This document shows positions 3,169 to 42,200 of a stretch of 42,200 nucleotides of DNA, one piece after another (within the stretch, counting starts at the first letter, position 1; each line of letters begins with the position of its first letter). Under the pieces are notes generated by a model. It ran no database searches. It was not told where the DNA came from and saw nothing but the letters and a program-made list of their open reading frames with translations. The position numbers were made by a program, and so were the translations under genes. Source of the DNA: a virus (lineage: Duplodnaviria; Heunggongvirae; Uroviricota; Caudoviricetes); IMG/VR virus record IMGVR_UViG_2522572164_000007. One strand, written 5' to 3'.

Positions 3169-3333
3169 GGTTAAATCTCCGTATGGTTCATACGGAATAG
3201 CCACGTATAGCGCGGCGATTTTTTTGATACCGATTTGCATTTCATTTGATACCGCTGAAAAACGCCGATACGCAACTTATTTGATACTAAATCGGCGCTT
3301 TTCTTTTGAGTTTTAGAATGAGTTTTTAAGCGC

Positions 3334-4261: not shown

Positions 4262-4450
4262 CTCATGCAATCGATCGACAAAAACGATCGATTCGATTTG
4301 TTTAATTGATACAACAAATAGATTTAAAAGTCATCAACAATGATTCAGGGCGGTGATTATTTACTTAAAGAAACGAAGAGTTAGGTGGTGAAAACGATCA
4401 TAAAATGATCATTTTATTGACTTTTTATACAGTGAAGGTAGGATCGCGCG
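4262..4450 (-). promoter_or_regulatory. com-mom upstream regulatory region with clustered GATC (Dam) sites
   Basis: GATC at 4273, 4286, 4396, 4407 and 4442 (five in under 190 bp), directly upstream of com. Mu Pmom is known to be controlled by Dam methylation of upstream GATC sites that affects OxyR binding. Confidence 0.45.
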
Positions 4451-4497
4451 TATATGTAGTATGTTTCAAATCAACAGGATACTACATAAAAGTGAAA

Positions 4498-4523
4498 CCC
4501 AGCATAGCTGGAACTATGCTGGG
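4498..4523 (-). terminator. Candidate rho-independent terminator on the minus strand, upstream of the com-mom promoter
   Basis: Perfect 10-bp stem CCCAGCATAG / CTATGCTGGG with a 6-nt loop; on the minus strand it is followed by UUUCACUUUUAU. Confidence 0.4.
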
Positions 4524-4631
4524 TCAATCTGTAAAAACTTGCATCAATGCTTTACTTCGAGCTCGTGGCGTATCCTATGATATTCCCCGGTCTCCTGTAA
4601 AGCAGAGATGCATAAAAAGGAGATCTTTATC

Positions 4632-4802
4632 ATGGATAAAGAGCCTGTTTGCCCTGCCTGTAAGACTCCCTTACAGCTCATCTATCGCCGTTCTCGATCT
4701 CAAAATGGCAAGACATACAAACCAAAAAATGCTTCCTGTTTCAGGATGCTGATATGTCCTGCCTGTTCTCCCCGGAGGGAAAATACACAAAACGTGCATT
4801 AA
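4632..4802 (+). CDS. Small zinc-ribbon protein (CPxC...CPxC)
   Basis: ORF 4608..4802 trimmed to the ATG at 4632 with an AAGGAG RBS; MDKEPVCPACKTPLQLIYRRS...ICPACS; convergent with the 81-aa minus-strand gene. Confidence 0.45.
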   Translation: MDKEPVCPACKTPLQLIYRRSRSQNGKTYKPKNASCFRMLICPACSPRRENTQNVH

Positions 4803-4811
4803 CAAATTCAC

Positions 4812-4831
4812 CCGGCAGGGAAACCTGCCGG
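4812..4831. terminator. Bidirectional hairpin terminator between convergent genes
   Basis: CCGGCAGG-GAAA-CCTGCCGG (8-bp GC-rich stem, tetraloop) between the stop at 4802 (+) and the stop at 4841 (-); T-rich runs on both sides. Confidence 0.5.
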
Positions 4832-4840
4832 TCGGTATTG

Positions 4841-5086
4841 TTACATCATAGTACCGTCAGTTCCGGGCTGAACCGGCTCTGGTTGCTCTACGGGTTGAGG
4901 CTCATTTTCCGTGCTGTTTTCAGCCGGAGAACGACCAACCATTCGGGCCAGCACTTCATCAACATATGCGTCGATTTGTGCCTCAAAATCCTTGCGAACC
5001 TGCGCCTTCAGCACGCGGTTCACTTCTTCAGAATAAAGTGCCTGTTTGACAAGCTCTTCAGTAACCGTGCCTTTAATCTCTGGCAT
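4841..5086 (-). CDS. Hypothetical small acidic protein (81 aa)
   Basis: ATG at 5086 preceded by GGAGA; acidic, Pro/Glu-rich C-terminus; no family recognised. Confidence 0.5.
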   Translation of the reverse strand: MPEIKGTVTEELVKQALYSEEVNRVLKAQVRKDFEAQIDAYVDEVLARMVGRSPAENSTENEPQPVEQPEPVQPGTDGTMM

Positions 5087-5121
5087 GAATATTCTCCTTT
5101 CCTTTTCTGGTTCACAAAAAA

Positions 5122-5301
5122 TTAAATCTGACCGGAGTCTTTCGGCTGCGGCATTACAGCACCGCTTTTTATCTTTTCCTCGGCAGCTGCATCAATTTTA
5201 TTTCGAAAATAATTGCGAATAATTTTATAACCACCGCTGACAAGCAACAGACAACAAACCACCGTGCAGAAATACAGCAGGCAGACGTTTATATATGTCA
5301 T
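5122..5301 (-). CDS. Hypothetical small membrane protein (59 aa; below the ORF-track size cutoff)
   Basis: My own translation of the reverse complement from ATG 5301 to TAA 5122: MTYINVCLLYFCTVVCCLLLVSGGYKIIRNYFRNK...; one hydrophobic helix; GAGG upstream; sits between the esterase and the 81-aa gene. Confidence 0.3.
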   Translation of the reverse strand: MTYINVCLLYFCTVVCCLLLVSGGYKIIRNYFRNKIDAAAEEKIKSGAVMPQPKDSGQI

Positions 5302-5358
5302 ATAAGCCTCACTCTTATTAACTGATGTTACAGCCGGATAAATTCCCGGCCGTCACGA

Positions 5359-7416
5359 TTATGCCGCAGGGGTATTAACCTCAAGGACAACGCTCTCAAA
5401 AGACACGCCATAAGTTGCCCCTTTGGTGACATCTGTCAGTGTCAGCGTATCTTTGGCAGGGGAAAGTGCATCTTTCACCATCTGGAATGCCTGGCCCGGA
5501 GTGCCATCCAGCACAGGCGTTACCTGGGCACTTCCCGCCGTAAACTTCAGGACAAGTGTATGCCACTGGTTATTGTAGGCTCCAAATGATCCCAGTTTCG
5601 TATTCCCCCCTGTTTTATGGTGCATCAGATTTAACTGGCCGCCTGTTGTCTGGAGATAATACGCCATCAGGAACGGTGTGCCTGTACCACTCATGGTTAC
5701 ACCTTCCGGGACCGTATCGGTGTGGAGGTAAATACCCAGAGCAAACTGGCCTTCTTTTACTTCACCTGACAGACGGAATTTACAGGTCAACTGACCACCA
5801 TGCTTCAGAAGTTCACCGGCTGCATCAGTTCCATGGGTAAGCGTCCAGGTTTTTCCGCTTTGTTTGGATACGGTCAACGCTTTACCTTCGTCCGTCAGCT
5901 GGATTGTACCATCTGTAATTTTCCAGCCCTGAGCCGGGGCTTCTCCTGCTGATGCTTTAAGTGAAAGCAGCGTACGGAGTGACGGGGATGTCGGATGGGG
6001 GGACTCACTGCCTCCTGGCTGACTACCTGTCGGCGCTTCCGGTTTCCCACCCGGCGCGGGCTGAGGCAGGGCTTCACCATCAGGGGCCACACCGGCAATA
6101 AATGCAGAGGTCAGACCTGCATATTTAAGAATTGCTGATGCAAAACGATCTGAGACCAGAAAACGGCGCGCCCAGGAGCTAAAATGGGTTGCCCTGGATG
6201 CTGTTGTCCAGTTGCCATCTCCCCGTGATTCCGCACCATAATACCCGGCAGAAGCGATATCCGGGTCGTGCTCCGGCAGGTTGGTCGCGGTTTTATTACC
6301 GAACTCATCGTGCATCAGTGGAACAAAGTGAATGTTCTCGGAAGCCCGGTTTTTATATCCGCTATAAATGGTTTCATATGCCGCCGGGTTCTTCTCTTTC
6401 CAGTCATAGGTTGTGTCACCACATAACCACGGCACACTGTCTGATGAACCACCAATACACTGACCGGAGAAAGCACCAAGATCCGCACGGAATTTTTTCA
6501 CCATCGCAGTAAACTGGGCACCATGCTGGGCCGGGGTCGCTTTAAGGTCTCCTTCCCCCTGAATCCATACGACAGATAACAGCACATTCTTTGGATTCGC
6601 CTCAAGTGCCGCTTTAGTTCGACTGACAAGATCCTGATACAGTGGGGTATCCACTCCCCAGCGTAGTGACGCCTCGGCTGCACCACTTGCCGGATCGAAT
6701 GAGCCAACTGCGCCGGTTGTAAAAGCAGAGCCGCCACGGGCACAGGGAACCAGTAAAATCCCGGCATCAGCAGGAATCACCGGTAATACTTTTTTCGCAA
6801 TATGAAGTCCCTGCCCCACACAACCATACTGCCCTTTTTTCAGGTCTGCTTTTGGATGGTTCAGCAGACTCATATTCTGAACATCATGAAGGCAGTGATC
6901 TGCTGGAATGATTTCATTGTATTTGCAGGGAATACCTCCGGGGGTTTGTGTATTCCTGCGTGCCAGCTGCATAATACGTGGATCAGGACGATCATAAGAA
7001 TCCGGAAGGGGCAACCCTTCACCATAAGATGAAGCATTGGACTGGCCGGCTATAACAATCACGTAATACCAGGAAGGGGAGCTGGAAGCCGTTTCATTTC
7101 CTGCCGGACGGGTATGTGTTTCTGCATTATCCCAGTCTGACGGTTCAGCAGTACCGGCAACATCAGCACTTAACGGAATGACAGCACCAATACCCGCTCC
7201 GGTAATTTCCACGTTCGGATCACCGGATACTGGCCTTACCCACAGGCAATCCTGTGTATTAAAACTGATGAGACAGTCAGCAAATGTCATTCCTCCTTTC
7301 GTTTCAGCAGGAGGAAAGGGAGCCTCAAGAAATGCCGCTGTACCACCGGAAACTTTAACGGTAAAGTTTCCGGGCATTGATGATAGTTGAACCCATTTGG
7401 ACGTCATAATATTCAT
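5359..7416 (-). CDS. Sialate O-acetylesterase, NanS-p-like (SGNH hydrolase) with extra N- and C-terminal domains
   Basis: 685-aa ORF with YVIVIAGQSNASSYGEG (GQSN block of SGNH esterases); overall architecture resembles the prophage NanS-p esterases of enterohaemorrhagic E. coli. Confidence 0.7.
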   Translation of the reverse strand: MNIMTSKWVQLSSMPGNFTVKVSGGTAAFLEAPFPPAETKGGMTFADCLISFNTQDCLWVRPVSGDPNVEITGAGIGAVIPLSADVAGTAEPSDWDNAETHTRPAGNETASSSPSWYYVIVIAGQSNASSYGEGLPLPDSYDRPDPRIMQLARRNTQTPGGIPCKYNEIIPADHCLHDVQNMSLLNHPKADLKKGQYGCVGQGLHIAKKVLPVIPADAGILLVPCARGGSAFTTGAVGSFDPASGAAEASLRWGVDTPLYQDLVSRTKAALEANPKNVLLSVVWIQGEGDLKATPAQHGAQFTAMVKKFRADLGAFSGQCIGGSSDSVPWLCGDTTYDWKEKNPAAYETIYSGYKNRASENIHFVPLMHDEFGNKTATNLPEHDPDIASAGYYGAESRGDGNWTTASRATHFSSWARRFLVSDRFASAILKYAGLTSAFIAGVAPDGEALPQPAPGGKPEAPTGSQPGGSESPHPTSPSLRTLLSLKASAGEAPAQGWKITDGTIQLTDEGKALTVSKQSGKTWTLTHGTDAAGELLKHGGQLTCKFRLSGEVKEGQFALGIYLHTDTVPEGVTMSGTGTPFLMAYYLQTTGGQLNLMHHKTGGNTKLGSFGAYNNQWHTLVLKFTAGSAQVTPVLDGTPGQAFQMVKDALSPAKDTLTLTDVTKGATYGVSFESVVLEVNTPAA

Positions 7417-7506: not shown

Positions 7507-8067
7507 TTATTTTTCCGAAACGCTCGCAGGATAATAACGATAAAGGGTTGAAAGGCCGATATCAAAAATAAGTGCCACCTGTCTTCGACTGACACCCCCG
7601 GCCAGTAAACGCCCGACCTGCTCGTATTGTTCCTGCGTGAGACGACGGGGTCTGCCGCCGGTTCGTCCCCTTTCACGGGCAGCTGCAAGACCAGCCCGTG
7701 TCCGTTCGACAATTAATTCACGCTCCATTTCTGCCAGCGCACCCATTATGTGAAAAAAGAAGCGCCCCATGGGGGTTGACGTATCAATGTTGTCAGTAAG
7801 ACTACGAAAATTTATCCCCTGTTGCTGTAATTCATCTGTCAGCGCAACAAGGTGGCGCATACTGCGCCCCAGCCTGTCCAGTTTCCAGACCATCAGTGTG
7901 TCACCGGGTTTTAGTTTCTTCAGTGCCCGCTTCAGTCCCGGCCGCTGTGTCGTTTTACCACTCATTTTATCTTCAAAAATCTGCTCACATCCTGCACATT
8001 CCAGCGCATTTCTTTGTAAACCTGTGTTCTGGTCATTTGTTGATACGCGTATATAGCCAATCAGCAT
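7507..8067 (-). CDS. gin: Serine recombinase, DNA invertase Gin/Hin/Pin/Cin family
   Basis: 186 aa; MLIGYIRVSTNDQNTGLQRNAL... is the resolvase/invertase catalytic N-terminus, with a C-terminal HTH (GRPRRL...STLYRY). Confidence 0.9.
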   Translation of the reverse strand: MLIGYIRVSTNDQNTGLQRNALECAGCEQIFEDKMSGKTTQRPGLKRALKKLKPGDTLMVWKLDRLGRSMRHLVALTDELQQQGINFRSLTDNIDTSTPMGRFFFHIMGALAEMERELIVERTRAGLAAARERGRTGGRPRRLTQEQYEQVGRLLAGGVSRRQVALIFDIGLSTLYRYYPASVSEK

Positions 8068-30538: not shown

Positions 30539-30869
30539 TCGTGGCCGCCTCACTGATTTGTGAAATGAGTTGCAGGGTGTGCTGCTGATTTGCCAGCACC
30601 TGACGCGCCTCATCCCGCTCACGCACAAGCACCTGATTATTGTCTTCAAGGCGCTGCGTCTTCTGGTGCATTCCCCATATCGCGGCAACCAGTACAGCGA
30701 TAATCCCCAGCGCCGCCATGCACGCCCCGGCAATCAGGGCCGGTAAGGCATTATTCACCGCAGCCACAGGACACCCCGTAACAGCAGTACCGCACACAGC
30801 AGCGCTATCATGATCGGTCGCCAGAAGCGGTTCAGACTTTCGGCAAATCGTAGCGACATAACCATTCAT
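30369..30869 (-). CDS. Candidate i-spanin (start uncertain)
   Basis: Hydrophobic LPALIAGACMAALGIIAVLVAAIW followed by a charged, Gln-rich coiled-coil-like region; directly downstream of the endolysin gene. Confidence 0.4.
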   Translation of the reverse strand: MNGYVATICRKSEPLLATDHDSAAVCGTAVTGCPVAAVNNALPALIAGACMAALGIIAVLVAAIWGMHQKTQRLEDNNQVLVRERDEARQVLANQQHTLQLISQISEAATNEKQQNIQHSEGQQSVVRRSLAAVPAASAPVPDDVADRVRRAVCEIRACEAGADPR

Positions 30870-31332
30870 CCGCCGAACGGCGGGCCTCAAGGCCGGGGAG
30901 CTTCACCCCCTTTGAATAAATCCAGCGGATATACTGCTTACAGGACGCGGGCATCTGCCCGGCATTGATCAGGCGCAGAAGCGTGGAGTTGCGAAAGTTC
31001 GTTTCACCGGCCCAGAAGATCCACGAAGCCAGCGCCACCGTCTGACCACGGGTAAGCGGCACCTGAACACGCCGATCAATGGCCGCAAAGGCCCATTTCA
31101 TGTCCTTTTCCAGTAGTTCCAGGCATTCTTCATCCGTCAGGGTCATACCCGGTTTCACATCCGGGCCGGTATGGCCGTAACAGATGGTGGGTGTACCGGT
31201 GGGATCGATATACGTGGAGTTTTCTTTCCCTTCCCAGTAACCGGTGTAATGCGTGGCAATCGTGAACGTCCCGGCACCGGCCAGAACAAGGGCAATCAGC
31301 TTTTTACGCAGTGGTGCGGGGAGTTTTGGCAT
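30832..31332 (-). CDS. lys: SAR endolysin (lysozyme, glycoside hydrolase family 24)
   Basis: 166 aa; N-terminal Gly/Ala-rich weakly hydrophobic segment LIALVLAGAGTFTIA; catalytic triad spacing E-x8-D-x5-T. Confidence 0.8.
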   Translation of the reverse strand: MPKLPAPLRKKLIALVLAGAGTFTIATHYTGYWEGKENSTYIDPTGTPTICYGHTGPDVKPGMTLTDEECLELLEKDMKWAFAAIDRRVQVPLTRGQTVALASWIFWAGETNFRNSTLLRLINAGQMPASCKQYIRWIYSKGVKLPGLEARRSADEWLCRYDLPKV

Positions 31333-31403
31333 TGTTACGCTGTCTCATGATGTTCTCTGAGTCAGCGTAACGGTGAAGGAAAGGCGGCAGGCTTTGCGGA
31401 ATA

Positions 31404-31829
31404 TCAGAAAAGTGGCGGTTGTGTTCTTGCCAGATGCAGACGGCGCTGTTCACGTATGACGGTATAAATCTGGGTTTCTGACATCCGGTAATGGCGGCGA
31501 AGGGATTCAATTTTCTCGCCCCGGTCCCAGCGCGAAAATATCTCATTGTTTCGCAGCTCGGCAAAGAGAGATTCCCCGACCGGCAGGTAATAACCCCGTC
31601 CGCCCATATAGGCTGCCTGAGCCGCAGCCACCTTGCGTGCCAGTTTGCCGGCCAGTACCGGCTCAATCCCCTGACGCTGAAGTTCTGCGCCGGTGACTTC
31701 AACCAGTTCTGACAGGGTCCGCGGCCAGTTCTTTTTGAGAACATCATCAGGGATGTCATCAAGGCGGTCGATAAGGGCGTGCAGTTGCTCACTGTCACCA
31801 CCAAACATGCTCATCTGAGTTTCTGCCAT
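31404..31829 (-). CDS. mor: Mor/C-family transcriptional activator
   Basis: 141-aa ORF immediately downstream of the GemA-like gene and upstream of lys, with a C-terminal HTH-like region. Confidence 0.7.
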   Translation of the reverse strand: MAETQMSMFGGDSEQLHALIDRLDDIPDDVLKKNWPRTLSELVEVTGAELQRQGIEPVLAGKLARKVAAAQAAYMGGRGYYLPVGESLFAELRNNEIFSRWDRGEKIESLRRHYRMSETQIYTVIREQRRLHLARTQPPLF

Positions 31830-31898
31830 ATCAGCCTCCGGTTCTCGCGTTCCCGGTAAGTTTAAAATAAAAATCCCGCGTTGTGGCGGGATTTGGGG

Positions 31899-32408
31899 TT
31901 AACGGGGAAGTGATTTTTCATACTGCCTGCAAACGGCGTCATACCCCATCAGCGTGCGTTCGGGCATTCCCATCGCGGCCAGCATTTTGCGGCGGTGCCA
32001 TCGCTTGAGACGCTCCAGCACATCTGAGGCCAGGGCGGGGTGTTGCTCCAGCCACTGCCAGTTTGCCACACCTTCGCCGCCGTTTTGCGCGGCCGTCTGC
32101 GATTTCACCCAGCGGTTAAGGGCGGTTTCCGCACCATCAGAGATAAAGCCCTGCCGGTGCATCACCTTCCAGATGGCGCGAATTTTAGCGGTCACCGTAC
32201 CCGGTTTTAAGGCCCGGTTAACCGGGTTCTGACGCACTTTAAAACCGCGTTTTTTGAAAACATCCAGCACGCGGGATAACTCATCCGGTGACATATCCCG
32301 GCAGCTGGTTTTGCCGGTGACCGCCAGTAGTACGGATGTGTAGGTTTCATCATCCAGGGCAAGCTCGCGTTTTGCCACATGAATGGCAGATATCAGTTTC
32401 CCTCTCAT
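31899..32408 (-). CDS. gemA: GemA-like protein (Mu gp16-like)
   Basis: 169-aa ORF; N-terminal ...IHVAKRELALDDETY... motif; position upstream of mor. Confidence 0.6.
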   Translation of the reverse strand: MRGKLISAIHVAKRELALDDETYTSVLLAVTGKTSCRDMSPDELSRVLDVFKKRGFKVRQNPVNRALKPGTVTAKIRAIWKVMHRQGFISDGAETALNRWVKSQTAAQNGGEGVANWQWLEQHPALASDVLERLKRWHRRKMLAAMGMPERTLMGYDAVCRQYEKSLPR

Positions 32409-32701
32409 GCTGTATCAACACTCCTGCGGATATGATAGGTATTATTTTCCCGATCGAGCTGAACCCGATACTCCGGAGGAATCACAAAAATATTAAAACC
32501 ATCATCAGTTTTTATTCTTGAGTAGCATTCCCCCTTATGATATCTGGCCAGTGTATTAATCAGAGAAGTCGCAGCCTGCCCAATCAGGTATTTTTTATGA
32601 AAAATACTGATAACTTTCCGGCACAGCCATCGTGTAATGACGAATGCACCGAAAAAGGATGTGATATATAAATACCAGAACAACTGCGAACTACTGTCCA
32701 T
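32405..32701 (-). CDS. Hypothetical membrane protein
   Basis: 98-aa ORF with N-terminal hydrophobic helix LFWYLYITSFFGAFVI. Confidence 0.45.
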   Translation of the reverse strand: MDSSSQLFWYLYITSFFGAFVITRWLCRKVISIFHKKYLIGQAATSLINTLARYHKGECYSRIKTDDGFNIFVIPPEYRVQLDRENNTYHIRRSVDTA

Positions 32702-32888
32702 TATCTTTCTCCTTATTCAGTCTTCTGCGGCATTCGGCACAGTCATCAGGGCTTTCAAATGTATCCGGCTCGCGATTATGAGCCAGATATAACCACCGTC
32801 CACATATACTGATATTTTCGCCTGTTTTAAAAAAATGATGCTTCCTGGCCATTAGTGGCCGCGCCCATCCAGCGGGTAGACTATTCAT
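32691..32888 (-). CDS. Hypothetical small Cys-containing protein
   Basis: 65-aa ORF with four Cys in a zinc-ribbon-like arrangement. Confidence 0.4.
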   Translation of the reverse strand: MNSLPAGWARPLMARKHHFFKTGENISICGRWLYLAHNREPDTFESPDDCAECRRRLNKEKDNGQ

Positions 32889-33216
32889 TTGCTTTATCCT
32901 CCATGCTGGACAGAATCATATGTATTAATGTCGGGCGTGGAGATATACGCATTTCATTAAGCGTCTGAAGGGCAGCAACAGCTGCCTGTTTATCGGTGCC
33001 TTTGGCAATTTCAGCAAGAGAATGCACAATCCATAATGGGCTTAACGCTACGGCTGAATGCAGAATCATGTCATCCATAATAATTTCTGGCATATCCCGT
33101 TTGTCACATTCTTTATCCATAAAAGAAACGATTTTTTCTGCATCTTCCGGTTTCATTCCTCCGGCGATGAGAATTTTACGATATTCATAAGACGATCTTA
33201 ATTCAATACTCATCAT
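32881..33216 (-). CDS. Hypothetical early protein
   Basis: 111-aa ORF, tightly packed in the early operon. Confidence 0.45.
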   Translation of the reverse strand: MMSIELRSSYEYRKILIAGGMKPEDAEKIVSFMDKECDKRDMPEIIMDDMILHSAVALSPLWIVHSLAEIAKGTDKQAAVAALQTLNEMRISPRPTLIHMILSSMEDKANE

Positions 33217-33228
33217 TCACCTGCCTGT

Positions 33229-33597
33229 TTAATCAGTTTCCAGTGCTTTGCTACGGGCAACAGCCTCACACTCAAAAAATACCGACTCCGGCACACGCTC
33301 CTTTAATTCACGAACAAGAAAATCATTAACGAGTTCATGACGTCTTATATTTCTTTCCTTTTCCTCCTGGCGCAATACAGCAAGGCGGTATTCAACAGTC
33401 CGGCGTTGTTTCTGAAAGACAGCCAGTGCTTTTCTGGCAGAGTTACGCCATGTATCATCGCCACAGGGTTCGTATTCAAGCTGAAATTTAATCTCTTCAA
33501 TGGTTTCTTTTATTTTTGCCAGCAAGCTAAGACAGTCGCTGATTGTCTTCAGTTTTTCATTATCAATATAACTTCTCACGCATTCACCTCCCGTCAT
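33229..33597 (-). CDS. Hypothetical early protein
   Basis: ORF 33229..33621 trimmed to the ATG at 33597, which overlaps the upstream stop (ATGA). Confidence 0.45.
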   Translation of the reverse strand: MTGGECVRSYIDNEKLKTISDCLSLLAKIKETIEEIKFQLEYEPCGDDTWRNSARKALAVFQKQRRTVEYRLAVLRQEEKERNIRRHELVNDFLVRELKERVPESVFFECEAVARSKALETD

Positions 33598-33905
33598 TCC
33601 GGTAAAGCTGAAATATGGCACCAGTGCGTCACCTGTCCGTCCTCATCTTCAAGGCAGGCTCCGGTTTCTTCATCAATAAAAAAGCCTTCATACCCCATAT
33701 GGCCGATGCGCAGTTCCTGTTGGTCACCATACTGAACAATCAGCACGACAGCCTCCATATCAGGCGGGAAAGCATCATTCAGTGAATGCCAGGGATAACC
33801 GCGCAAATCCCCGAAATAAACACCGGTCAGCGTTCCGCCACAGACCGGCATTCCGACGGCACACACAAGGGGTTCATCTGATTCAACAAATAATGTCGTT
33901 ATCAT
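33594..33905 (-). CDS. Hypothetical early protein
   Basis: 103-aa ORF; overlap-coupled to its neighbours. Confidence 0.45.
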   Translation of the reverse strand: MITTLFVESDEPLVCAVGMPVCGGTLTGVYFGDLRGYPWHSLNDAFPPDMEAVVLIVQYGDQQELRIGHMGYEGFFIDEETGACLEDEDGQVTHWCHISALPE

Positions 33906-34453
33906 GGCATTAATTCCCGTAATACAACATCTTCGGCAGTCCGACGACGGTGATAAATAAAACTCACCGCGCCCTCGGATAATTCAAATTTCTCGCCGAT
34001 TTCCCTAAAGGTAAGACGCCGTGGTGATTCAGCATCCCGTAATTCACGAATAAGACGAACATCATCGTCAGGTATGCGGGTGAAGGGCAGCAACTCTCCG
34101 TATTTTTTCATGCTTACGCCAATATATCGCGCCCGATTATGGACAGAATCCCGGTCTCGCCCCAGATATTCTCCTATTTGCTTACCGGTCATTGTTCTGG
34201 CATTTTTTCGGATAAATTTATCTTCATCAGGTTTAAATCTGAGGCGTTTGCATTTGAGCAACTCCGGGTAAGTACCGCGTAATAAAACAATCCGGTTATG
34301 TACACCCCAGAAACTTCTTTTTATCCTGACAGCAATATCCTTAACCGGGGTGGATGGATAAAGCGCAATCAGCAGCGCATCTTCTTCAGGTGTCCATGCG
34401 CGAACATGAGCGGGTGCACGGCCTTTTCTCCCCATGGGTTGTAATATCATCAT
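33902..34453 (-). CDS. Putative DNA-binding protein with two Myb/SANT-like repeats
   Basis: 183 aa; WTPEEDALLIALY...GVHNRIVLLR and FKPDEDKFIRKNA...VHNRARYIGV repeats, plus a C-terminal HTH-like segment. Confidence 0.45.
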   Translation of the reverse strand: MMILQPMGRKGRAPAHVRAWTPEEDALLIALYPSTPVKDIAVRIKRSFWGVHNRIVLLRGTYPELLKCKRLRFKPDEDKFIRKNARTMTGKQIGEYLGRDRDSVHNRARYIGVSMKKYGELLPFTRIPDDDVRLIRELRDAESPRRLTFREIGEKFELSEGAVSFIYHRRRTAEDVVLRELMP

Positions 34454-34456
34454 GCA

Positions 34457-34972
34457 TCACCCCCTGACTCGCTTTTCAGCAGCATAAAACTCATCAGACA
34501 GAATTTCGGTCATTTTCTGTTTTGCGGGTTTTACGCCGCACTGAAGGTAAATCACATCGTCAACGCAGAACCACTCCACAGGGCCAAACAGGATTGCCGA
34601 GAAATCAATGCCCAGCCAGAACAACAGTGCATCGGTTCTGGCATACGTGACGGGCGAATATTCACGCCACAGACTGTTAAGTTCGTCAGAGGCAACGCGC
34701 AGGGCTTTGGGAATACGTGATGTGCGCGGTGTGCAGCTCCAGCCATTCGACGCAGTTGGTTTTCGCCATAAATCACGATGAAAAGGATATTTGTCCTCCG
34801 TAAAACGCAGTCCCTTAAAACAAAAACCACTGATACTGAATTCAAATACCGACCGGCACGCAACATTCAGCACGGCCTCAAGGCGTTTCGCCTCATCTTT
34901 TACCGTCTGGCAGTCCTGCTGGTATTTTTGCCATGCAGCCAGCGCGGAAGGGTTTGATGTTTTAAAGAACAT
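34457..34972 (-). CDS. Hypothetical early protein
   Basis: 171-aa ORF in the operon. Confidence 0.45.
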   Translation of the reverse strand: MFFKTSNPSALAAWQKYQQDCQTVKDEAKRLEAVLNVACRSVFEFSISGFCFKGLRFTEDKYPFHRDLWRKPTASNGWSCTPRTSRIPKALRVASDELNSLWREYSPVTYARTDALLFWLGIDFSAILFGPVEWFCVDDVIYLQCGVKPAKQKMTEILSDEFYAAEKRVRG

Positions 34973-35505
34973 TACGCCACCTCCGCTGATATCCCGGCAG
35001 GCGCGGCCGTCCGGTCAACAATCAGGTAACGCAGAACGCGCGAGGTGATATTCCAGCCGCTTAAACCGCAGATAATGACGCCCAGGCGGATGTCGATATA
35101 CGCCATCACAAACTGGGGCACGCCTTCTTTCATGGCCTGCTCATCAACTTCAGCCACCACATAAACGGTTTCACAGGTCAGCACGCCCTGAGCAAATTCC
35201 CACGCCATCGACGGAATATCATGCCCTTCAATCCACGGCAGGGATTTTCTGAAGCTGCACCACTGAACATCATCAGCCGCAGACTCCTGGCTGCATTTGC
35301 GACGAACCGGCTGCACCGGGCGGGGACGCGGAATATCATAAAAACCGTTACATTCCGTCAGCACCCCGGCATCGACCGCATCACGCAGAAAATAAACCAT
35401 CGAGGATGGCGGCATATTCATTTTTTCAGCCAGAATGCCGCAGGTCAGACGCCCGTAAATACTCAGCCAGTTTTTAACCCCTTCAAGCACTTTTGCATCA
35501 ATCAT
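34972..35505 (-). CDS. Hypothetical early protein (possible winged-helix N-terminus)
   Basis: 177-aa ORF. Confidence 0.45.
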   Translation of the reverse strand: MIDAKVLEGVKNWLSIYGRLTCGILAEKMNMPPSSMVYFLRDAVDAGVLTECNGFYDIPRPRPVQPVRRKCSQESAADDVQWCSFRKSLPWIEGHDIPSMAWEFAQGVLTCETVYVVAEVDEQAMKEGVPQFVMAYIDIRLGVIICGLSGWNITSRVLRYLIVDRTAAPAGISAEVA

Positions 35506-35508
35506 GAA

Positions 35509-36051
35509 TTATTCCTCCGTCAGCGCCACATATTCAGAATGTTTAATCTCCTGGCATTCTTCAGGAATACCCCCTTTTATTTCCCTGCCATAAGCGCCTA
35601 CTTTAAACACCACGCACAGGACATCACGGGAGAGCGACGGGGTCCACCAGGAGTCCGTGTTAAACATGGAGGGGATTCTCATTACCCCCAGCTTTTCACA
35701 GAGCCAGACAAGGAAATCAGGACGCTTTCTTAACTCACGTTCAGCGGTTTCAATCATTGCGGCAATCGCCGGACCTTCAGGGCATGACTCATCAGGTCTG
35801 GCAATAAAGCACGGTCCGTCCCCGATAAAAGCCACATCATCGCGCTTACGCCAGCCCGCAGGCAGAGAACCAGAAAAATAAAACTCACTGATTACGTCCA
35901 TGGCGAACGGCTTTAAGCGCAATCCGGCAGCGCCTGTATTTTTCAGTAATGCCCGAAGAATACTGTTGCGTAGCGGTAAAACATCCCGCTGATATTCGGT
36001 TAAATATTTATTTGTGTACACTATGTCTAATTTGAAATAAAAATATGCCAT
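35509..36051 (-). CDS. Hypothetical early protein
   Basis: 180-aa ORF; preceded by a 97-bp non-coding gap after the Gam-like gene. Confidence 0.45.
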   Translation of the reverse strand: MAYFYFKLDIVYTNKYLTEYQRDVLPLRNSILRALLKNTGAAGLRLKPFAMDVISEFYFSGSLPAGWRKRDDVAFIGDGPCFIARPDESCPEGPAIAAMIETAERELRKRPDFLVWLCEKLGVMRIPSMFNTDSWWTPSLSRDVLCVVFKVGAYGREIKGGIPEECQEIKHSEYVALTEE

Positions 36052-36148
36052 ATTTCCTGTTCCTTATTTTCAGTTTACAGGCGCAGGCAGTCCCCTGACG
36101 CGAGCGCCATAATTAACACGATGTGATATTTAAAGATTTAATGCGGTG

Positions 36149-36679
36149 TTATTTATTCAGTCCGGCGTCCTGTTCAAAAGGCTCGACATAAAAACTTTCA
36201 GCGCCTTTATTCACCTTTATACCGGCAATGCCCTTCACCGCATCTGGCTCCGCCAGGACAGCTTGCTTATTCACTTCCTCTTTCGTGCGGATGAAGCGCT
36301 CAAGGCCCATACGGCGCAGCATTTCAATCACGCCTTCCACATCACGGCTGACGCTGCATGATGGCGTTCCCAGCCGCCATGACACCGTTCCGGTGGTCAG
36401 ATTGGCTGTTTTGGTTTCGCCGCCGTTCGTCAGCTCATTGCGGTTGGTTTTACACCAGTCATGAATCCCCTTAAAAAGCACTTTGATTTCTTTTTTAAGG
36501 TTTTCAATCTGCGGCGTATAACGGGCGGTGATTTCTGCCACTTCGTCATTCATCGCTGTTTCCAGGCGCAGCGCCTCTCGCTGAATATCGCCCAGGGTGC
36601 GGATATCGCGGCTGACCTCTTCACGGGTCTGCGGTGCTGCCTCGGCTGCGGCCTTTAATTTTGTAACGCGTTTAGCCAT
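36149..36679 (-). CDS. gam: Gam-like host-nuclease inhibitor (DNA end-binding protein)
   Basis: 176-aa ORF; size and early-region position match Mu Gam. Confidence 0.75.
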   Translation of the reverse strand: MAKRVTKLKAAAEAAPQTREEVSRDIRTLGDIQREALRLETAMNDEVAEITARYTPQIENLKKEIKVLFKGIHDWCKTNRNELTNGGETKTANLTTGTVSWRLGTPSCSVSRDVEGVIEMLRRMGLERFIRTKEEVNKQAVLAEPDAVKGIAGIKVNKGAESFYVEPFEQDAGLNK

Positions 36680-36690
36680 TTTGTTTTTCC

Positions 36691-36984
36691 TTATTGCAGT
36701 GTGCCTGATGCTTTATGCACGCGGTGGCGTTTAATGATGGCATCCGCCCCAAAAGCCTGTACAGATGCCTGAAATTCCGCTGAGAGAAACTGAATAATTT
36801 CAGGACTGTGATACTGGAGAATACTTGCATAAACGTCACAGAGTGACGTCGGCCTGTTATCCGTATCACGTTCTGTTTTTACATCCACACCAATCTTTTC
36901 ATGCACTTCAACACTGTCATTGCCTGCCGGTTTTTCGTCATGCGAAACATGCTCAAATTCAAAAATAACGCGTACTTTGCTCAT
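36691..36984 (-). CDS. Hypothetical early protein, paralogue B (MSKVRVIFEF...)
   Basis: ORF 36691..37011 trimmed to the ATG at 36984; N-terminus shared with the upstream gene. Confidence 0.45.
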   Translation of the reverse strand: MSKVRVIFEFEHVSHDEKPAGNDSVEVHEKIGVDVKTERDTDNRPTSLCDVYASILQYHSPEIIQFLSAEFQASVQAFGADAIIKRHRVHKASGTLQ

Positions 36985-36988
36985 GGAA

Positions 36989-37261
36989 TTACCCCTGCTG
37001 ATTAAATTCATTACCGTTAATAACCCCGGAAGCCATGCCCCTGTCTTTCATGAATGCACTGGCTTTCATTGCCACAAGCTCTGCGAAGTTTCTGCTTTCT
37101 GCCAGCATAACCACCCCAAAAATCATGGCGGGGCTATCATTTTTCTGCTTTATTCCGGTTGAACGTATATCCAGACTTACCCCCATGTGCACTGTTCCAT
37201 CAGCGTTTTTACGGATAACGTCCTCCTTGTATTCGAAAATAATGCGCACGACTTTACTCAT
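36989..37261 (-). CDS. Hypothetical early protein, paralogue A (MSKVVRIIFEY...)
   Basis: 90-aa ORF, tandem with paralogue B. Confidence 0.45.
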   Translation of the reverse strand: MSKVVRIIFEYKEDVIRKNADGTVHMGVSLDIRSTGIKQKNDSPAMIFGVVMLAESRNFAELVAMKASAFMKDRGMASGVINGNEFNQQG

Positions 37262-37539
37262 CCTCTGGCCCTCGTTCTGTTTGGATAACTGACCCGGCGT
37301 CTGACCTCACGGCAGAACTGAACCATGGCATTAAAGGCTTCTTCTTCCGTCACCGCTTCCGGTATTCCAGGAACCAGTAGCTGTTCCTGTTCATCGCGTC
37401 CATGACGCGCCACAACATCAATCACATGCCGTACCGTGGCGGGCTTTCCGGCAACTATCGGCAATGCACCTTCCGGCAGGACGTAACCAAACTCAATAAG
37501 ACCACTCGACCACGCCCATGCAATGAGATTTTTTTTCAC
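37258..37539 (-). CDS. Hypothetical early protein
   Basis: 93-aa ORF. Confidence 0.45.
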   Translation of the reverse strand: MKKNLIAWAWSSGLIEFGYVLPEGALPIVAGKPATVRHVIDVVARHGRDEQEQLLVPGIPEAVTEEEAFNAMVQFCREVRRRVSYPNRTRARG

Positions 37540-37540
37540 C

Positions 37541-37807
37541 TCACACCTCCCAGTAAACCGTGCAGCCGCTGATGCGGGTGGCCTTCACACGGCGGCGCAG
37601 GCCGTTGGTCTGTATGGTGATTTCAATTTCACCGGTTCCCTGCACGTTGCCTACCGGCGGCGTGGTTTTCAGTGCAAAACGTTGCGGATAGCGCTTACTG
37701 CGTTCCAGTACCGCACCGGCAAGTTCGGTCAGACGGCGCGCGCTGTTCAGGGAGTCGAATAAATTCATTTTGTTACCGCAGGATTGCATATTCATATAAC
37801 ACCTCAT
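37541..37807 (-). CDS. Hypothetical early protein
   Basis: 88-aa ORF; start uncertain. Confidence 0.4.
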   Translation of the reverse strand: MRCYMNMQSCGNKMNLFDSLNSARRLTELAGAVLERSKRYPQRFALKTTPPVGNVQGTGEIEITIQTNGLRRRVKATRISGCTVYWEV

Positions 37808-38035
37808 TTAGCTGACTTGTTTCGCACCAACAGAACGGCATATTCCGCTGTAAACGTCTGTCGCACCTTCGCGATCAAGTCCGGCAGATATCACCATTCG
37901 TGTGCGGTCATTAAATTCAAAAAGTAAATCGCCACATGCTTTATTTTCGGCCAGTGAAATCACCTTCACGTTATCGAAATTAACCAGGTAAAAGCGTCCG
38001 TAAATATCAGGAATATTAAATACCGCCATAATCAC
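37808..38035 (-). CDS. Hypothetical early protein at the position of Mu kil
   Basis: 75-aa ORF overlapping the end of the MuB-like gene (ATGA); Mu kil occupies this position and size, but identity is not shown by sequence. Confidence 0.4.
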   Translation of the reverse strand: MIMAVFNIPDIYGRFYLVNFDNVKVISLAENKACGDLLFEFNDRTRMVISAGLDREGATDVYSGICRSVGAKQVS

Positions 38036-38964
38036 ACCTGTGAGAGTAATTCAGGGTTGGTATAAACCTCTTTAAAGGCCGCATTAATATGTTTTTCTGT
38101 CAGCGCCGCGCCTTCACCGCTGGCGGTGAGCCACGCCTGGTTAAGCGTATGTGTCAGAACGCGTAATGCTCCCGGCTTTTCAGCGATAGCCTGCATGACG
38201 GCCAGCTCGGCCTCACCACTGATACCCCATGCCCTGGCAATGGCCAGCACATCCGCCTTTTTGGCCTTGCGAAGTTGTTTTGTACGGGCAAGACGGCTGA
38301 ACAGGCGCGATAAATCATCAAAGGCGCGGCGTCCACCTTTAAACAATCCGCGCGGGTTACCAATAAGCACCATCCCGATCCCCGTGGCGTCCTGAATTGC
38401 CCGGAGTTGCTCCAGACCGTCAATACCAAGATGATCCGCCTCATCCACAATCACCAGTCCACGCGTTCCCGTCAGGCGACGGCGGATGGCGCGGGATAAT
38501 GCCCCTTTGTTCGCGCGGGTGTAATCAATCCCCAGCGCATCGGCCAGCTCCAGCAGACACTCCGTGACGCTGGAGTGCGCGGGTGACAGGGTGATCATCC
38601 AGGTGTTTGGTTGCTCCTGGCAGTAATTACGGGCAGTGGCCGTTTTACCCACACCCGGTACGCCCACAATAACGTTAATACAGCCCATCAGGCGAACCGC
38701 CTGAAACAGTGCGCGCAGCTCCTGGACTGTCTGAGTTTCCACAAACTGCGGCGGTTCCGGCAGTGCGCTTTGTTTATTCCAGTTCTCATACCAGGAGCGC
38801 AGGGAAGCAGCCACAGCGGCGTTATCGCCTTTATATTTCCCCTTGCGGAAAGCCGATAATGTGCCGTCGGAAATTCCCGCCTCTCTGGCGATGGCATACT
38901 GCGTCAGCACGCCGCCATCAATAAGTTCATCAATGGTCTTGATTACATCGTTTATATCGGTCAT
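38032..38964 (-). CDS. B: MuB-like AAA+ ATPase (target DNA activator)
   Basis: 310 aa; Walker A GVPGVGKT, Walker B LVIVDEADHL, N-terminal HTH; immediately downstream of the transposase. Confidence 0.85.
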   Translation of the reverse strand: MTDINDVIKTIDELIDGGVLTQYAIAREAGISDGTLSAFRKGKYKGDNAAVAASLRSWYENWNKQSALPEPPQFVETQTVQELRALFQAVRLMGCINVIVGVPGVGKTATARNYCQEQPNTWMITLSPAHSSVTECLLELADALGIDYTRANKGALSRAIRRRLTGTRGLVIVDEADHLGIDGLEQLRAIQDATGIGMVLIGNPRGLFKGGRRAFDDLSRLFSRLARTKQLRKAKKADVLAIARAWGISGEAELAVMQAIAEKPGALRVLTHTLNQAWLTASGEGAALTEKHINAAFKEVYTNPELLSQV

Positions 38965-39039: not shown

Positions 39040-41130
39040 TCAGGCCAGAGGGTCATTTTCTTTTAATTTCGCTTCGAGCAACTGCAATCCCCGCTGGAAA
39101 TTACGCTCGTATTCTTCATCAGGCTCATCATCAACGGCAGGTTGCTGAACGGTCACCGTATTACCCACAGGGCGGTATATGTTTTCCAGCCAGGGCTCCT
39201 GCGGCTTGTGCTCCAGCACGTTGACAACCTCATCCTCGGCATCACGGATTTTTTCCTCTGCGCGTTTACGCATACCTTTAAGGCGTTGCTGCTGTTTGTA
39301 GTATTCCGCGCTGACCGGGAAGGCTTCGCGTTTATTGCCGTCCCATACCGCCTCGCAAATCACGCTGCCATCCGGGCGACGTACGGTAATTCGTTCGGCA
39401 TCATGAATGTCATAGCTGATAAGCACCTTGCGGCCATGCTCATCACTCAGCTCGGGCGCGTAGTAAATATTATTCAGCCAGCGTATTTCACAGCGTCTTA
39501 CAGGGCGTTCCACCATTGGCCGGAACATATCCCGCAGCTCAACATCGGACAGCCATTCAATTTCCGTGTCCTCTTCTGCCAGGCGTTTTTTTCTGAACTC
39601 CGCCGGGCTGTAATGCTTCCCGTTCGGCTTCATGGGTAATTCATCGTGCGGCCGGTTGTTGTACCACTCAACGCCATCACGAATGGCATCAATCAGTTCA
39701 GACCAGGACGGTAAATCACGCATCGCTGACTGTTGCCGGGCGTTCAGCCGTTTGCCCTGTTGCAGGGCGGTAAATGCCGAGCGTAAATCGCGGTTGGTTT
39801 TGCGTAACGTCTCGCGATCTGCACCTTTCCCGAAATAGGTGCGGTATTTACGGGCTATGCGCATCGGTAATGTGCGGTTAAGCCGTTCGATAATGCCTCG
39901 CCCCTGCGGATTACCGGCAATCCCGGTCGGGTGATTAATCCCCAGTCGCGGCAGTATCCCCACAACCTCCTTATCCAGGACGTCGGCGGTTTCCCCGGAG
40001 CCGTTATCCGAGTAATACAGAAACGGTTTGCCGTGATGGCGAATGCCGTGCTGTATGGCACCGGCTACGGCGAAAACATTTTCAGCCAGGTCAAGGCTCC
40101 AGCCCACCACAAAGCGCGTGCCACCGTCGATAACAAAGGTCACTTCCGGTGCAAATGGCCGACCGTGAACCGGGTGTGCGCATTTCAGCTTCATGCCGTG
40201 ACCGTCACCAATCCAGACATAATTCACCGGCATTCTGGACCAGTCGCGGCGCGTGAATCCCTCAAGCTGGCGGTATTCACTGCCGGTCACCCGGCCTTTT
40301 TGTTTCACCACTTCCGGCAGTTTCTTCATTGCGCGGCGGATGGTGTCGTAAGACGGCATGATATCGAGCATATAAGGCTCATCAGCGTGCCGGTGCTGCC
40401 ATTCAGCGACAAAATCCTCGTAAGCCTCGGTCATTGGTCGGCCGTTTGACTGGCGATACTGCGCCAGAAATTCGGGCAGCCAGTTAATATCTTCGGCTTT
40501 TATTTCCTGGCGCTTACCAGGTGCCAGCAAAAGCAGGCGTTCAGCGGCGTTCTGCGCCTTGTTAAAGGCTGCAATCCAGCGTTTCAGCGTGATTTCACTC
40601 AACGCACGGCTGTTTCCCTTTTTGGCGTTCGCCGTCTCAACCATTGCCACAATGCGCTCGTCCAGTTGCGAACGTGCCAGGTTGTCAACGATAAACCGGA
40701 TAGCCTTCGCACAGCTGAAACCAGGTTGTTGCGCGACTTTCAGAACTTCGCTGACGATCGCGATTCGTGCATCAGCCACCTGGCGCTGGTTTTCAGTCAG
40801 GGCATTGAGGCGTTCAACCATCAGTTGTGGTGATCCGCGATATGCCTCCACCGCATCAACCACGGCAGGCGAGCGTCTGGCCTTTGTCACCACCGGAGCC
40901 GGTGATTCATCAGCTTTTTGCGTCATCAGTTGAAGGGCATAACGTTCACGCAATACTTGTTGCGCGCCAGAAGGCAAACAATCGATATTAAATTCGATTG
41001 CTTTTGTCCCCTTACGTTTGCGTAACATGGCTGCATTTCCCGCAGCTGCTTTTGTGAGTCGATGGCGAATGTTATGTTCCATCATTGGTAAATCAGGAAG
41101 ACCAACACATTCTTTTGCTGTTACCCACAT
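39040..41130 (-). CDS. A: MuA-like DDE transposase
   Basis: 696-aa ORF; size and position between ner and B. Confidence 0.85.
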   Translation of the reverse strand: MWVTAKECVGLPDLPMMEHNIRHRLTKAAAGNAAMLRKRKGTKAIEFNIDCLPSGAQQVLRERYALQLMTQKADESPAPVVTKARRSPAVVDAVEAYRGSPQLMVERLNALTENQRQVADARIAIVSEVLKVAQQPGFSCAKAIRFIVDNLARSQLDERIVAMVETANAKKGNSRALSEITLKRWIAAFNKAQNAAERLLLLAPGKRQEIKAEDINWLPEFLAQYRQSNGRPMTEAYEDFVAEWQHRHADEPYMLDIMPSYDTIRRAMKKLPEVVKQKGRVTGSEYRQLEGFTRRDWSRMPVNYVWIGDGHGMKLKCAHPVHGRPFAPEVTFVIDGGTRFVVGWSLDLAENVFAVAGAIQHGIRHHGKPFLYYSDNGSGETADVLDKEVVGILPRLGINHPTGIAGNPQGRGIIERLNRTLPMRIARKYRTYFGKGADRETLRKTNRDLRSAFTALQQGKRLNARQQSAMRDLPSWSELIDAIRDGVEWYNNRPHDELPMKPNGKHYSPAEFRKKRLAEEDTEIEWLSDVELRDMFRPMVERPVRRCEIRWLNNIYYAPELSDEHGRKVLISYDIHDAERITVRRPDGSVICEAVWDGNKREAFPVSAEYYKQQQRLKGMRKRAEEKIRDAEDEVVNVLEHKPQEPWLENIYRPVGNTVTVQQPAVDDEPDEEYERNFQRGLQLLEAKLKENDPLA

Positions 41131-41469: not shown

Positions 41470-41558
41470 GATACTCGAACAATAATCCGAGATCAAGCTT
41501 TTTGTTCGGTTTATTGTTTGGTTTTTCTTTTGTGCGTTTTTGTAGGAAAACCATTTTT

Positions 41559-42200
41559 ATGACAAATAGTTATGAAGAAAAAACCGATGTGAAAAGGGAA
41601 AAGTTAGATCGGATTATTAGCCGGAGCACAATAAACCGCTTTGGTGAAAGGCTCAAAGTGGCCATGAAAGGGATGAGTAATGCCGAATTAGCGAGACGAA
41701 GTGGCATGTCCGAAACAACAATAAGGAAATACCTACAGGGAAAGATTTACCCTGCACTTGATAGCCTGGCTATTGTTGCTGACGCTTGCGGGGTATCTCT
41801 GACTTGGCTCGCGACTGGAGAACAACAAGCAAACCAAACAATAGTTCGAGATGATGCTAAACAAAATTATGACAATGAGTATGAATTACTCATTCACTTA
41901 CTTCATAAGCTCAAAAAAGAAGAATGTGTATTACTGGTTGATTTCATATCGCGTGAGGGCGTAAACACCCTTATAAGATTGGTGGCAATGAATGCCTCTA
42001 CGATCAGCCAGGATGCCGTAGAAAGCATCATTGATACGTTACCGTTACGTCCAGTGCTAAAAAATGCAATAAAAGTAGGAATGGCGGGAAGCGAAGACAC
42101 TGACAAAGAGATTTTGCGCGTTATTGAGAAGTACAACTCGAGCAATAACGCCACCCAGGAATCAAGGGCAGTGACAGTAAAGAAAAATGTTGTTGGTTAA
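41559..42200 (+). CDS. Prophage repressor, XRE-family HTH
   Basis: ORF 41502..42200 trimmed to the ATG at 41559 with an AGGAAA RBS; HTH SNAELARRSGMSETTIRKYLQGK; divergent from ner, as Mu c is. Confidence 0.6.
   Translation: MTNSYEEKTDVKREKLDRIISRSTINRFGERLKVAMKGMSNAELARRSGMSETTIRKYLQGKIYPALDSLAIVADACGVSLTWLATGEQQANQTIVRDDAKQNYDNEYELLIHLLHKLKKEECVLLVDFISREGVNTLIRLVAMNASTISQDAVESIIDTLPLRPVLKNAIKVGMAGSEDTDKEILRVIEKYNSSNNATQESRAVTVKKNVVG

Follow-up and report, generated by a model that had tools for sequence, protein, structure and literature searches.

Mapping of the accessory early genes of Mu-like phages goes back to the 1980s and, to our knowledge, roles have been assigned among them only to Kil, Gam and GemA/Mor. 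In phage Mu they form the accessory, or semi-essential early (SEE), region (AF083977, genes Mu_5 to Mu_16, about 4.3-8.8 kb), on which background is available (PMC4553209). Other systems suited to comparison are the Pseudomonas transposable phages (D3112, DMS3 and the JBD series; Casadabanvirus) and, from different hosts, SuMu and Mannheimia 3927AP2, whose SEE regions have only gam and gemA annotated (PMC4553209). Here we analysed a virus sequence of 42,200 nucleotides (IMG/VR record IMGVR_UViG_2522572164_000007, hereafter the window), and in particular the block of 15 small genes that occupies positions 32405-38035 on the minus strand. Our conclusion, to which we give a probability of about 0.85, is that this interval is the accessory early region of a Mu-like transposable prophage of Escherichia coli. 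It is a region of an already sequenced kind, and it is ordinary apart from a hairpin that follows gam.

The window is a Mu-like prophage that reads along the minus strand, with the repressor (41502-42200) on the plus strand, and it contains a Pfam MuB_C match (2.5e-25). The genes follow one another in the order repressor, ner, A (39040-41130), B (38032-38964), the early block, gemA, a Mor/C-family gene (31404-31829), lysozyme (30832-31332) and the late genes. A first-pass annotation of this DNA had described 16 tightly coupled minus-strand open reading frames (ORFs) between B and mor, and this layout was confirmed: 15 lie in the interval and gemA (31899-32408), just outside of it, is the sixteenth. 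Junctions in the block range from an 11-nt overlap to a 14-nt spacer, with the sole exception of a 97-bp gap (36052-36148) after gam, and the gap was correctly reported to precede four ORFs of 180, 177, 171 and 183 amino acids (aa) over 33902-36051. Position, strand and tight coupling are the same as in the Mu SEE region, since the block lies between B and the Mor/C-type regulator on the strand of ner, A and B, and homologues of kil, gam and gemA are all found in it. G+C content is 44-52% in the early block against 55-60% in the late genes, and the six sigma-70-like sites found in the block, with 9.5 expected, represent no excess over chance. Directly after gemA there is a hairpin resembling an intrinsic terminator (31871-31894, minus strand; a 9-bp stem and then TTATTTT), which is the probable end of the early transcript.

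Only Gam and GemA had been considered recognisable in this block. However, Pfam, BLASTP and hhalign searches also revealed counterparts of Mu Kil, gp11, gp12 and gp9/E8. When each ORF was searched against profiles, all 15 in the interval matched a PHROG family (E between 4e-34 and 2e-105), but counterparts in Mu were found for six of the 16 proteins only and for the other ten there was none. By homology, three of these six (Kil, Gam and GemA) correspond to Mu proteins with genetically defined roles. The PHROG families in common with Mu are 323, 1949, 2314 and, weakly, 2679.

Gam (36149-36679; all block genes are on the minus strand) is a Mu-type Ku-like DNA-end-binding protein of 176 aa, which matches Pfam Phage_Mu_Gam (PF07352, E 2e-40) over its full length, residues 19-167 aligning to all 149 positions (1-149) of the profile; with Mu Gam it shares 55% identity over 175 aa, again full length, by BLASTP. 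GemA, of the gp16 family, is the last protein of the block (169 aa); it covers all 119 positions of the Pfam GemA profile (PF06252, positions 1-119, E 2e-30) and shares 43% identity with Mu GemA (BLASTP). The gp11 homologue (34972-35505, 177 aa) is 67% identical to Mu gp11 over 177 aa (BLASTP), matches Gp11_C (PF25754, E 8e-40) and belongs, as Mu gp11 does, to phrog_1949; its N-terminal region looks like a possible helix-turn-helix (HTH), and no PDB sequence match was found for it. The gp12 homologue (34457-34972, 171 aa) is 54% identical to Mu gp12 over 169 aa (BLASTP), and PF26885 is carried by all 77 of its database relatives. Its structure model, a confident one, returned no informative structural or functional match and predicts a phage-specific fold. 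No functions for gp11 and gp12 were found in the literature searched.

The remaining two counterparts are more distant. The Kil-like ORF (37541-37807; 88 aa, shortened to 84 aa when the ATG at 37795 is taken as the start, as the NCBI annotation pipeline PGAP does) matches phrog_2679, 'Kil', with E 8e-46, and its alignment with the Mu Kil family by hhalign has a probability of 91% (E 9e-7, 64 columns). Mu Kil itself matches phrog_2679 at 9e-5 in the C-terminal half only, and in BLASTP the two proteins share 33% identity over the C-terminal 39 aa. The gene is not the first after B, as another ORF, o1 (37808-38035), stands between them. The gp9/E8-like protein (33902-34453, 183 aa; a predicted DNA-binding protein, hereafter the HTH protein) belongs to phrog_323, as does Mu gp9, and its residues 62-171 align with the Mu gp9/E8 family at 100% probability (hhalign, E 1e-43). 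It consists of two Myb/SANT-like repeats, homologous to each other (97.6% probability, E 3e-12), followed by a third HTH, whereas Mu gp9 has the last two units only. With its extra repeat it is therefore longer than Mu gp9 (183 against 95 aa), and it lies downstream of the gp12 homologue instead of upstream of gam, where Mu has it. Pfam gave weak HTH, Myb and sigma70_r4 matches for this protein, and a sub-threshold sigma-70 match, again to this protein, was all that NCBIfam returned for the block. PDB sequence searches with profiles or single sequences of the gp11-like, gp12-like and HTH proteins, and of two further proteins, o3 and o7, gave nothing below E 0.1. Concerning the rest of the Mu region, gp6, gp7, gp8, gp13, gp14 and Mu_54 are absent from the block in the window.

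We then compared the block with related loci. Eighty Mu-like loci were fetched via Gam and their ORFs clustered, and 15 complete loci from B to gemA with Gam 95-99% identical were taken as the lineage of the window. Among these 15 loci there are 12 gene orders. Present in all of them are o1, kil, the family of the slot occupied by gp7 in Mu, gam, gp11, gp12 and the HTH gene, while o7 is found in 14 and o3 in 10. The segment beside gemA is filled in some loci by alternative cassettes, including homologues of Mu gp13 and gp14. Moreover, five genes have sharply dimorphic alleles when loci L002-L029 are compared with the window: identities to the window protein are 62-65% or 91-100% for PPb (the second gene of a tandem pair in the gp7 slot), 24-25% or 90-99% for o7, 72-73% or 86-99% for the HTH protein, 73-77% or 95-99% for o1 and 51-52% or 92-99% for o15; the 24-25% identical o7 allele was found in four lineage members. 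The proposal that this early slot is a hot spot was thus borne out as regards gene turnover, by the gene orders and by these deep replacements. Mosaicism of this kind is classical for accessory regions; arms-race genes would fit it as well, but it is not specific to them.

The interval was found in 233 of 5,426 complete E. coli genomes, with up to 98.3% identity, so that this prophage lineage is present in about 4% of them, Shiga-toxin-producing strains included. It is 94.7% identical to a 'Mu-like phage' lying inside the Stx2c (Shiga toxin 2c) phage LC727881, and for three block proteins there are identical database entries that come from E. coli O104:H4 Ec11-9941. In general, the Mu-like prophages of pathogenic E. 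coli (those in the Stx phages LC727881 and LC727895 and those of the 233 genomes, for example NZ_AP026099) have 94-98% nucleotide identity to the window over the whole interval and the same 15 coding sequences plus gp16, and they differ from it only in cassette content and alleles. In LC727881, for instance, there are two extra small ORFs after the HTH gene and the o15 allele is 52% identical.

Among the points that are new here, if modestly so, is the conserved hairpin after gam, which is present in Mu too. The gap in which it lies measures 98 bp at the same place in Mu, and in Mu as in the window it contains a conserved AT-rich spacer and then a GC-rich hairpin (in the window 36080-36108, minus strand; GGCGC-UC-GCGUC-AGGG-GACUGC-CU-GCGCC) with the invariant apex GCGUCAGGG. 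The hairpin of Mu lies at about 6369-6398 of AF083977. In the window the element is unique, with 0 matches expected by chance, and 57 of 84 Mu-like loci carry it, in each case on the strand of gam, within 120 nt of the gam stop codon and nowhere else in those loci, while the next gene varies: o7 in 28 loci, gp11 in 22, and also c78, c133 or c104. Six variants of the hairpin fold at -15 to -21 kcal/mol, and the stem of the window at -15.5 kcal/mol. Both the GGCGC/GCGCC stem and the apex are invariant, and RNAalifold therefore sees no compensatory pairs (0). In variants of the L057/L072 type, however, the outer stem is longer on both sides together (UUCGGCGC...GCGCCGAA).

The element does not look like an intrinsic terminator: a stem is present, but it is followed by UGUAAACUGAAAAU and not by a U-tract, and a terminator scan did not report it. 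No Rfam match at E <= 1 was obtained in 31300-38200, no description was found in the literature searched, and the hairpin is lacking in the more distant lineages of the Pseudomonas or Haemophilus type. An 11-codon mini-ORF that overlaps it in the window and in Mu is not kept in the L057/L072-type variants, and was therefore set aside. Among the matches listed in a pattern scan of viral contigs, the true copies were all beside gam and most matches were due to chance; the 120 matches listed in a similar scan of genome contigs were all due to chance, in GC-rich genomes without Gam nearby. Two short sequence coincidences were also observed. The 14-mer GCGTCAGGGGATTG, the same as the apex of the Mu-lineage hairpin, lies inside the mor-family gene (31663-31677, minus strand), and the 9-mer GCGTCAGG[GA] occurs five times in the window, against about 0.6 expected under a first-order Markov model, which may be chance or a codon effect.

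We infer a role for the hairpin at the level of the early mRNA, where it would serve for processing, stabilisation or attenuation at the border between a conserved and an exchangeable half. Since the apex is conserved in sequence and does not covary, a protein-binding site in DNA or in RNA fits equally well. As an alternative we considered a DNA site, which might be a palindrome bound by a protein or a joint for recombination in the exchange of the distal cassettes. The apex (GCGTCAGGG) and the GGCGC/GCGCC arms behave as expected for such a site, and so does the constancy of the element and of the AT-rich spacer upstream of it while the downstream gene changes. However, the hairpin is always on the coding strand inside the operon, the lengthening of the stem on both sides at once fits selection for pairing, the phage has no second copy that could serve as recombination partner and no candidate binding protein is known. 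We hold a DNA site to be a tentative and rather doubtful alternative.

Our preferred reading of the whole interval, an accessory early region, can be put as follows. The 15 genes, translationally coupled on one strand downstream of ner, A and B, would most likely form the distal part of a single early operon that is read from the early promoter and ends at the terminator after gemA. Its stable core would consist of o1, the Kil-like gene, the pair in the gp7 slot, Gam, the hairpin, the gp11-like and gp12-like genes, the gp9-like Myb/HTH gene and GemA, while o3, o7 and o11-o15 would be swappable cassettes, which some members of a set of otherwise nearly identical prophages lack or carry as divergent alleles. 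By homology, Kil would block host cell division, Gam would cap DNA ends against RecBCD and GemA would modulate host gene expression; these roles are those established by Mu genetics, in part as summarised in PMC4553209. The Myb/HTH protein is predicted to bind DNA, and the other small proteins may be non-enzymatic binders, individually dispensable, that tune host physiology early in lytic growth. The hairpin, as a processing site, stabiliser or partial stop on the early mRNA, would part the conserved proximal half from the variable distal half.

Several points weigh against this picture. Co-transcription, the role of the terminator and that of the hairpin are all read from the DNA sequence, and the hairpin has no U-tract and an apex conserved without covariation. 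For ten of the 16 proteins Mu offers no counterpart, and no function is assigned to any of the ten; most of the evidence that the Kil-like protein is homologous to Mu Kil comes from the C-terminal half; and the confident models of o3 and of the gp12-like protein found no informative structural match. The layout also departs from Mu in the extra gene between B and kil, in the gp9-like gene on the other side of gam and in the terminator that precedes a single Mor/C-family gene. In any case the accessory-region reading leaves the current understanding of Mu-like phages unchanged, and maps the anatomy of the block in more detail. The hairpin, being present in Mu as well, offers a simple handle on the partitioning of the long early transcript.

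A further possibility is that the block is chiefly a counter-defence island, in which o3, o7, o11-o15 and the diversified tandem pair would each inhibit a particular host immune system (restriction-modification, RecBCD-linked or abortive infection). Genes engaged in an arms race typically vary in presence or undergo allele replacement among nearly identical prophages, as here; the proteins, presumably expressed early, are small, non-enzymatic and without cellular homologues, and the G+C of the block is below that found elsewhere in the phage. The block also encodes Gam, an anti-RecBCD protein, and according to a preprint the Gam and GemA of a Mu-like Pseudomonas phage sensitise that phage to the Gabija defence system (PMC12407980). 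This genetic interaction indicates that the interplay between the region and immunity is real as far as Gam and GemA are concerned. On the other hand, no ORF matched a known defence or anti-defence family in the searches made (PADLOC defence models; PDB sequence and fold searches). PADLOC, a library of defence and not of anti-defence models, was applied to ten ORFs and gave one marginal, sub-threshold match of the HTH protein to a homing-endonuclease model (E 0.0035) and nothing for the other nine.

The anti-restriction functions proposed for this slot accordingly found no evidence, nor was there any for anti-CRISPR activity: the PADLOC and PDB searches were uninformative, and mom, the known anti-restriction gene of Mu, lies at the opposite end of the prophage from the early block (3334-4071). 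Mosaicism is common in accessory regions of temperate phages irrespective of function. The ratio of nonsynonymous to synonymous substitution rates (dN/dS) against close relatives is below 1 for all ORFs (0.06-0.66), a rough estimate because the pairs are few and not independent. Finally, the sole 'inhibitor' label in the block, that of o3, traces to the annotation of a merged ORF in D3112, as discussed below. We therefore judge a counter-defence island unlikely as an account of the whole block, and return to the accessory region as the better one. A narrower conjecture comprises two readings: that at least one unassigned cassette protein (o3, o7, the gp7-slot pair or o11-o15) or the gp12 homologue is a new inhibitor of host defence or DNA repair, and that the GCGUCAGGG hairpin is an undescribed cis-acting RNA element setting an expression boundary between core and exchangeable half. 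This conjecture seems to us improbable. Together with the unfounded label of o3, the split between a fixed core and exchangeable genes turns the block into a sensible set of candidates for screening, both for toxicity and for counter-defence.

Concerning the ten proteins for which Mu itself has no equivalent (o1, o3, PPa, PPb, o7 and o11-o15), which databases label as hypothetical, profile matches place all of them in known phage families (PHROG). The first, o1, has 75 aa from its GTG, or 73 aa from an ATG at 38029, and matches phrog_3375 (E 3e-46); it is a lineage-specific small protein, present between B and kil in the 15 complete loci of the lineage and not in Mu.

The gene o3 (37258-37539, 93 aa) is a member of a large family, counting at least 2135 clusters, whose database name is 'host nuclease inhibitor protein'. 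Its structure model, also a confident one, predicts a small beta3-alpha-alpha protein, and returned no informative structural or functional match. An MbtH-like identity was considered and set aside: the fold has some resemblance, but a strong fold match together with the MbtH signature motif was not found. Nor was there similarity to Mu Gam, or homology to a nuclease-inhibiting protein such as Mu Gam or lambda Gam. The Pseudomonas transposable phages share Gam, GemA and the o3 family with the window, their o3 lying immediately downstream of gam, whereas the rest of their accessory genes are different and no such hairpin follows gam. In D3112 (locus L324, AY394005, 7567-8367) the coding sequence annotated as 'gam' has 266 aa and comprises Gam (1-161) and an o3-like ORF (176-248), with an out-of-frame stretch between them; in phages related to D3112 the gam stop codon is followed by one nucleotide and then by the o3 start codon. 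This merged coding sequence is the probable source of the name now carried by thousands of proteins of the o3 family. The label 'host nuclease inhibitor' is unfounded for o3 and appears to be an annotation artefact, and the correction of this family name is a by-product of our analysis.

The optional cassette gene right after the hairpin, o7 (35509-36051, 180 aa), matches phrog_2260 (E 5e-72) and has an invariant C-terminal motif, IKHSEYVAL-EE. Its relatives are very few, forming only 14 clusters among 5.8 billion proteins, the most distant being a Salmonella 'DUF5420' protein at 38% identity. A DUF5420 domain (PF17457) was however not found in the window protein by Pfam, and the best E-value was 0.015, in three of seven relatives, so the relation appears at best marginal. 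The gene stands between the gap and gp11 as an optional insertion, which Mu and several lineage members do not have and some Mu-lineage phages carry. It is also one of the four consecutive proteins of 171-183 aa, which do not form a single family, as no pair exceeded 3% probability in hhalign; the sizes of the gp11-like and gp12-like proteins are inherited from Mu gp11 and gp12 (176 aa each).

The variable cassettes follow the HTH gene. o11 (33594-33905, 103 aa; phrog_6925, E 2e-52) is present in 10 of the 15 lineage loci; an identical protein is named 'DUF551 domain-containing protein' in UniRef and, with no Pfam match at E 0.01, the protein is possibly DUF551-like. o12 (33229-33621) is 130 aa long, or 116 aa if read from the GTG at 33579, the start that PGAP chose and that has the better ribosome-binding site, and is found in seven loci (phrog_6158, E 2e-57). 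o13 (32881-33216, 111 aa; phrog_1988, E 6e-45) occurs in 12 loci and also between gp13 and gp14 in Mu-lineage phages. o14 (32691-32888, 65 aa; phrog_2358, E 4e-34) and o15 (32405-32701, 98 aa; phrog_17269, E 5e-68) are each found in eight. The former contains three Cys and three His residues. The latter has the highest dN/dS of the block (0.66) and a hydrophobic N-terminal stretch (LFWYLYITSFFGAFVITRWL), for which reason it is probably membrane-anchored.

The tandem pair in the gp7 slot comprises PPa (36989-37261, 90 aa; phrog_4107, E 5e-56), the first copy, and PPb (36691-36984, 97 aa, extendable to 37011 to give 106 aa; phrog_2230, E 4e-40), the second. Both begin with MSKV(V)R(I/V)IFE(Y/F). 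The first-pass annotation had noted a shared N-terminus followed by divergence, and had suggested duplication with subsequent diversification such as specificity switching. The two proteins are only weakly similar by BLASTP (22% identity, E 0.009), but hhalign of their family alignments, which are shallow (effective number of sequences about 1.4), gave 86% probability (E 5e-6, 77 columns) and a score of 35.5, against a maximum of 16.9 among 60 column-shuffled controls. When the first 21 residues were removed, the probability fell to 12% (E 0.0025). The wording of the annotation was therefore accurate, and of its duplication claim the paralogy stands as probable, with a signal carried mostly by the N-terminus and weak beyond it.

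Specificity switching goes further, and would have the copies now binding different variants of one host target. It could draw on the profile match, which none of the shuffled controls approached, on the adjacency of the pair in 13 of the 15 lineage loci, on the two deep allele classes of PPb and on a single related gene in the same slot of other Mu-lineage phages, whose proteins are 28-30% identical to PPb (E about 1e-6). Nevertheless, the similarity is concentrated in the first 20 or so residues, the alignments are shallow and dN/dS is below 1 in both members (0.32 and 0.46). PPa is 86-100% identical within the lineage, and PPb found six close relatives only when searched with phmmer against 1.84 billion representative proteins. 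Homology of the pair to Mu gp7/E6 itself (phrog_10252) was unsupported, with about 1% probability in hhalign and different PHROG families. We find paralogy probable for this pair and a switch of specificity improbable.

That the ORFs of the block are genes is indicated by several lines of evidence. PGAP annotates the same 15 coding sequences plus gp16 in a genome 98.3% identical, with starts that differ in four genes only (o1, kil, o12 and o13), and ribosome-binding sites of the GGAGG/AAGGA type precede nearly all starts. Six overlapping plus-strand ORFs have no PHROG match. By comparison with their relatives, all block ORFs are conserved and under purifying selection. That some of them would be chance reading frames in transcribed spacer, as the shortness of several (65-98 aa) and the 'hypothetical' annotation might suggest, is hardly tenable in view of PHROG matches at E <= 4e-34 for every ORF, identical or near-identical proteins called on hundreds to more than 1000 contigs, ribosome-binding sites at nearly all ORFs, dN/dS below 1 throughout and the lack of matches on the opposite strand.

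Outside of the block, the sole Mor/C-family gene, on the minus strand, begins 41 nt past the terminator-like hairpin and is followed directly by lysozyme; its product resembles Mu C (39%) more than Mu Mor (26%). In this the window differs from Mu, where no terminator separates gemA from such a gene, and one regulator therefore seems to replace the two of Mu. A layout with one regulator has been reported for SuMu-type phages, and in both SuMu and Mannheimia 3927AP2 a single Mor-family regulator precedes a lysis gene, as in the window (PMC4553209).

Between a gin-like invertase (7507-8067) and mom the prophage carries about 3.3 kb of cargo, where Mu has nothing. The cargo interval (4405-7416) includes a 685-aa protein with a SASA/sialate-O-acetylesterase domain and DUF6645 (5359-7416, minus strand) and two plus-strand ORFs (4405-4752 and 4754-5125) without a Pfam match. 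The flank at the right end of the prophage (437-3240) contains IS66-family orf1/orf2 (437-1182), a protein with DUF7828 and a zinc ribbon (1516-2037) and a YagK/YfjJ_C protein (2599-3240), and these genes place the end of the prophage near 3.3 kb. As a last observation, in a protein collection clustered at 90% identity the 84-aa Kil-like protein falls together with the 93-aa o3, and the 180-aa o7 with the 177-aa gp11 homologue, although the members of each pair are unrelated; such clusters are presumably bridged by fused or mis-called ORFs, a caveat for reading the cluster sizes given above.

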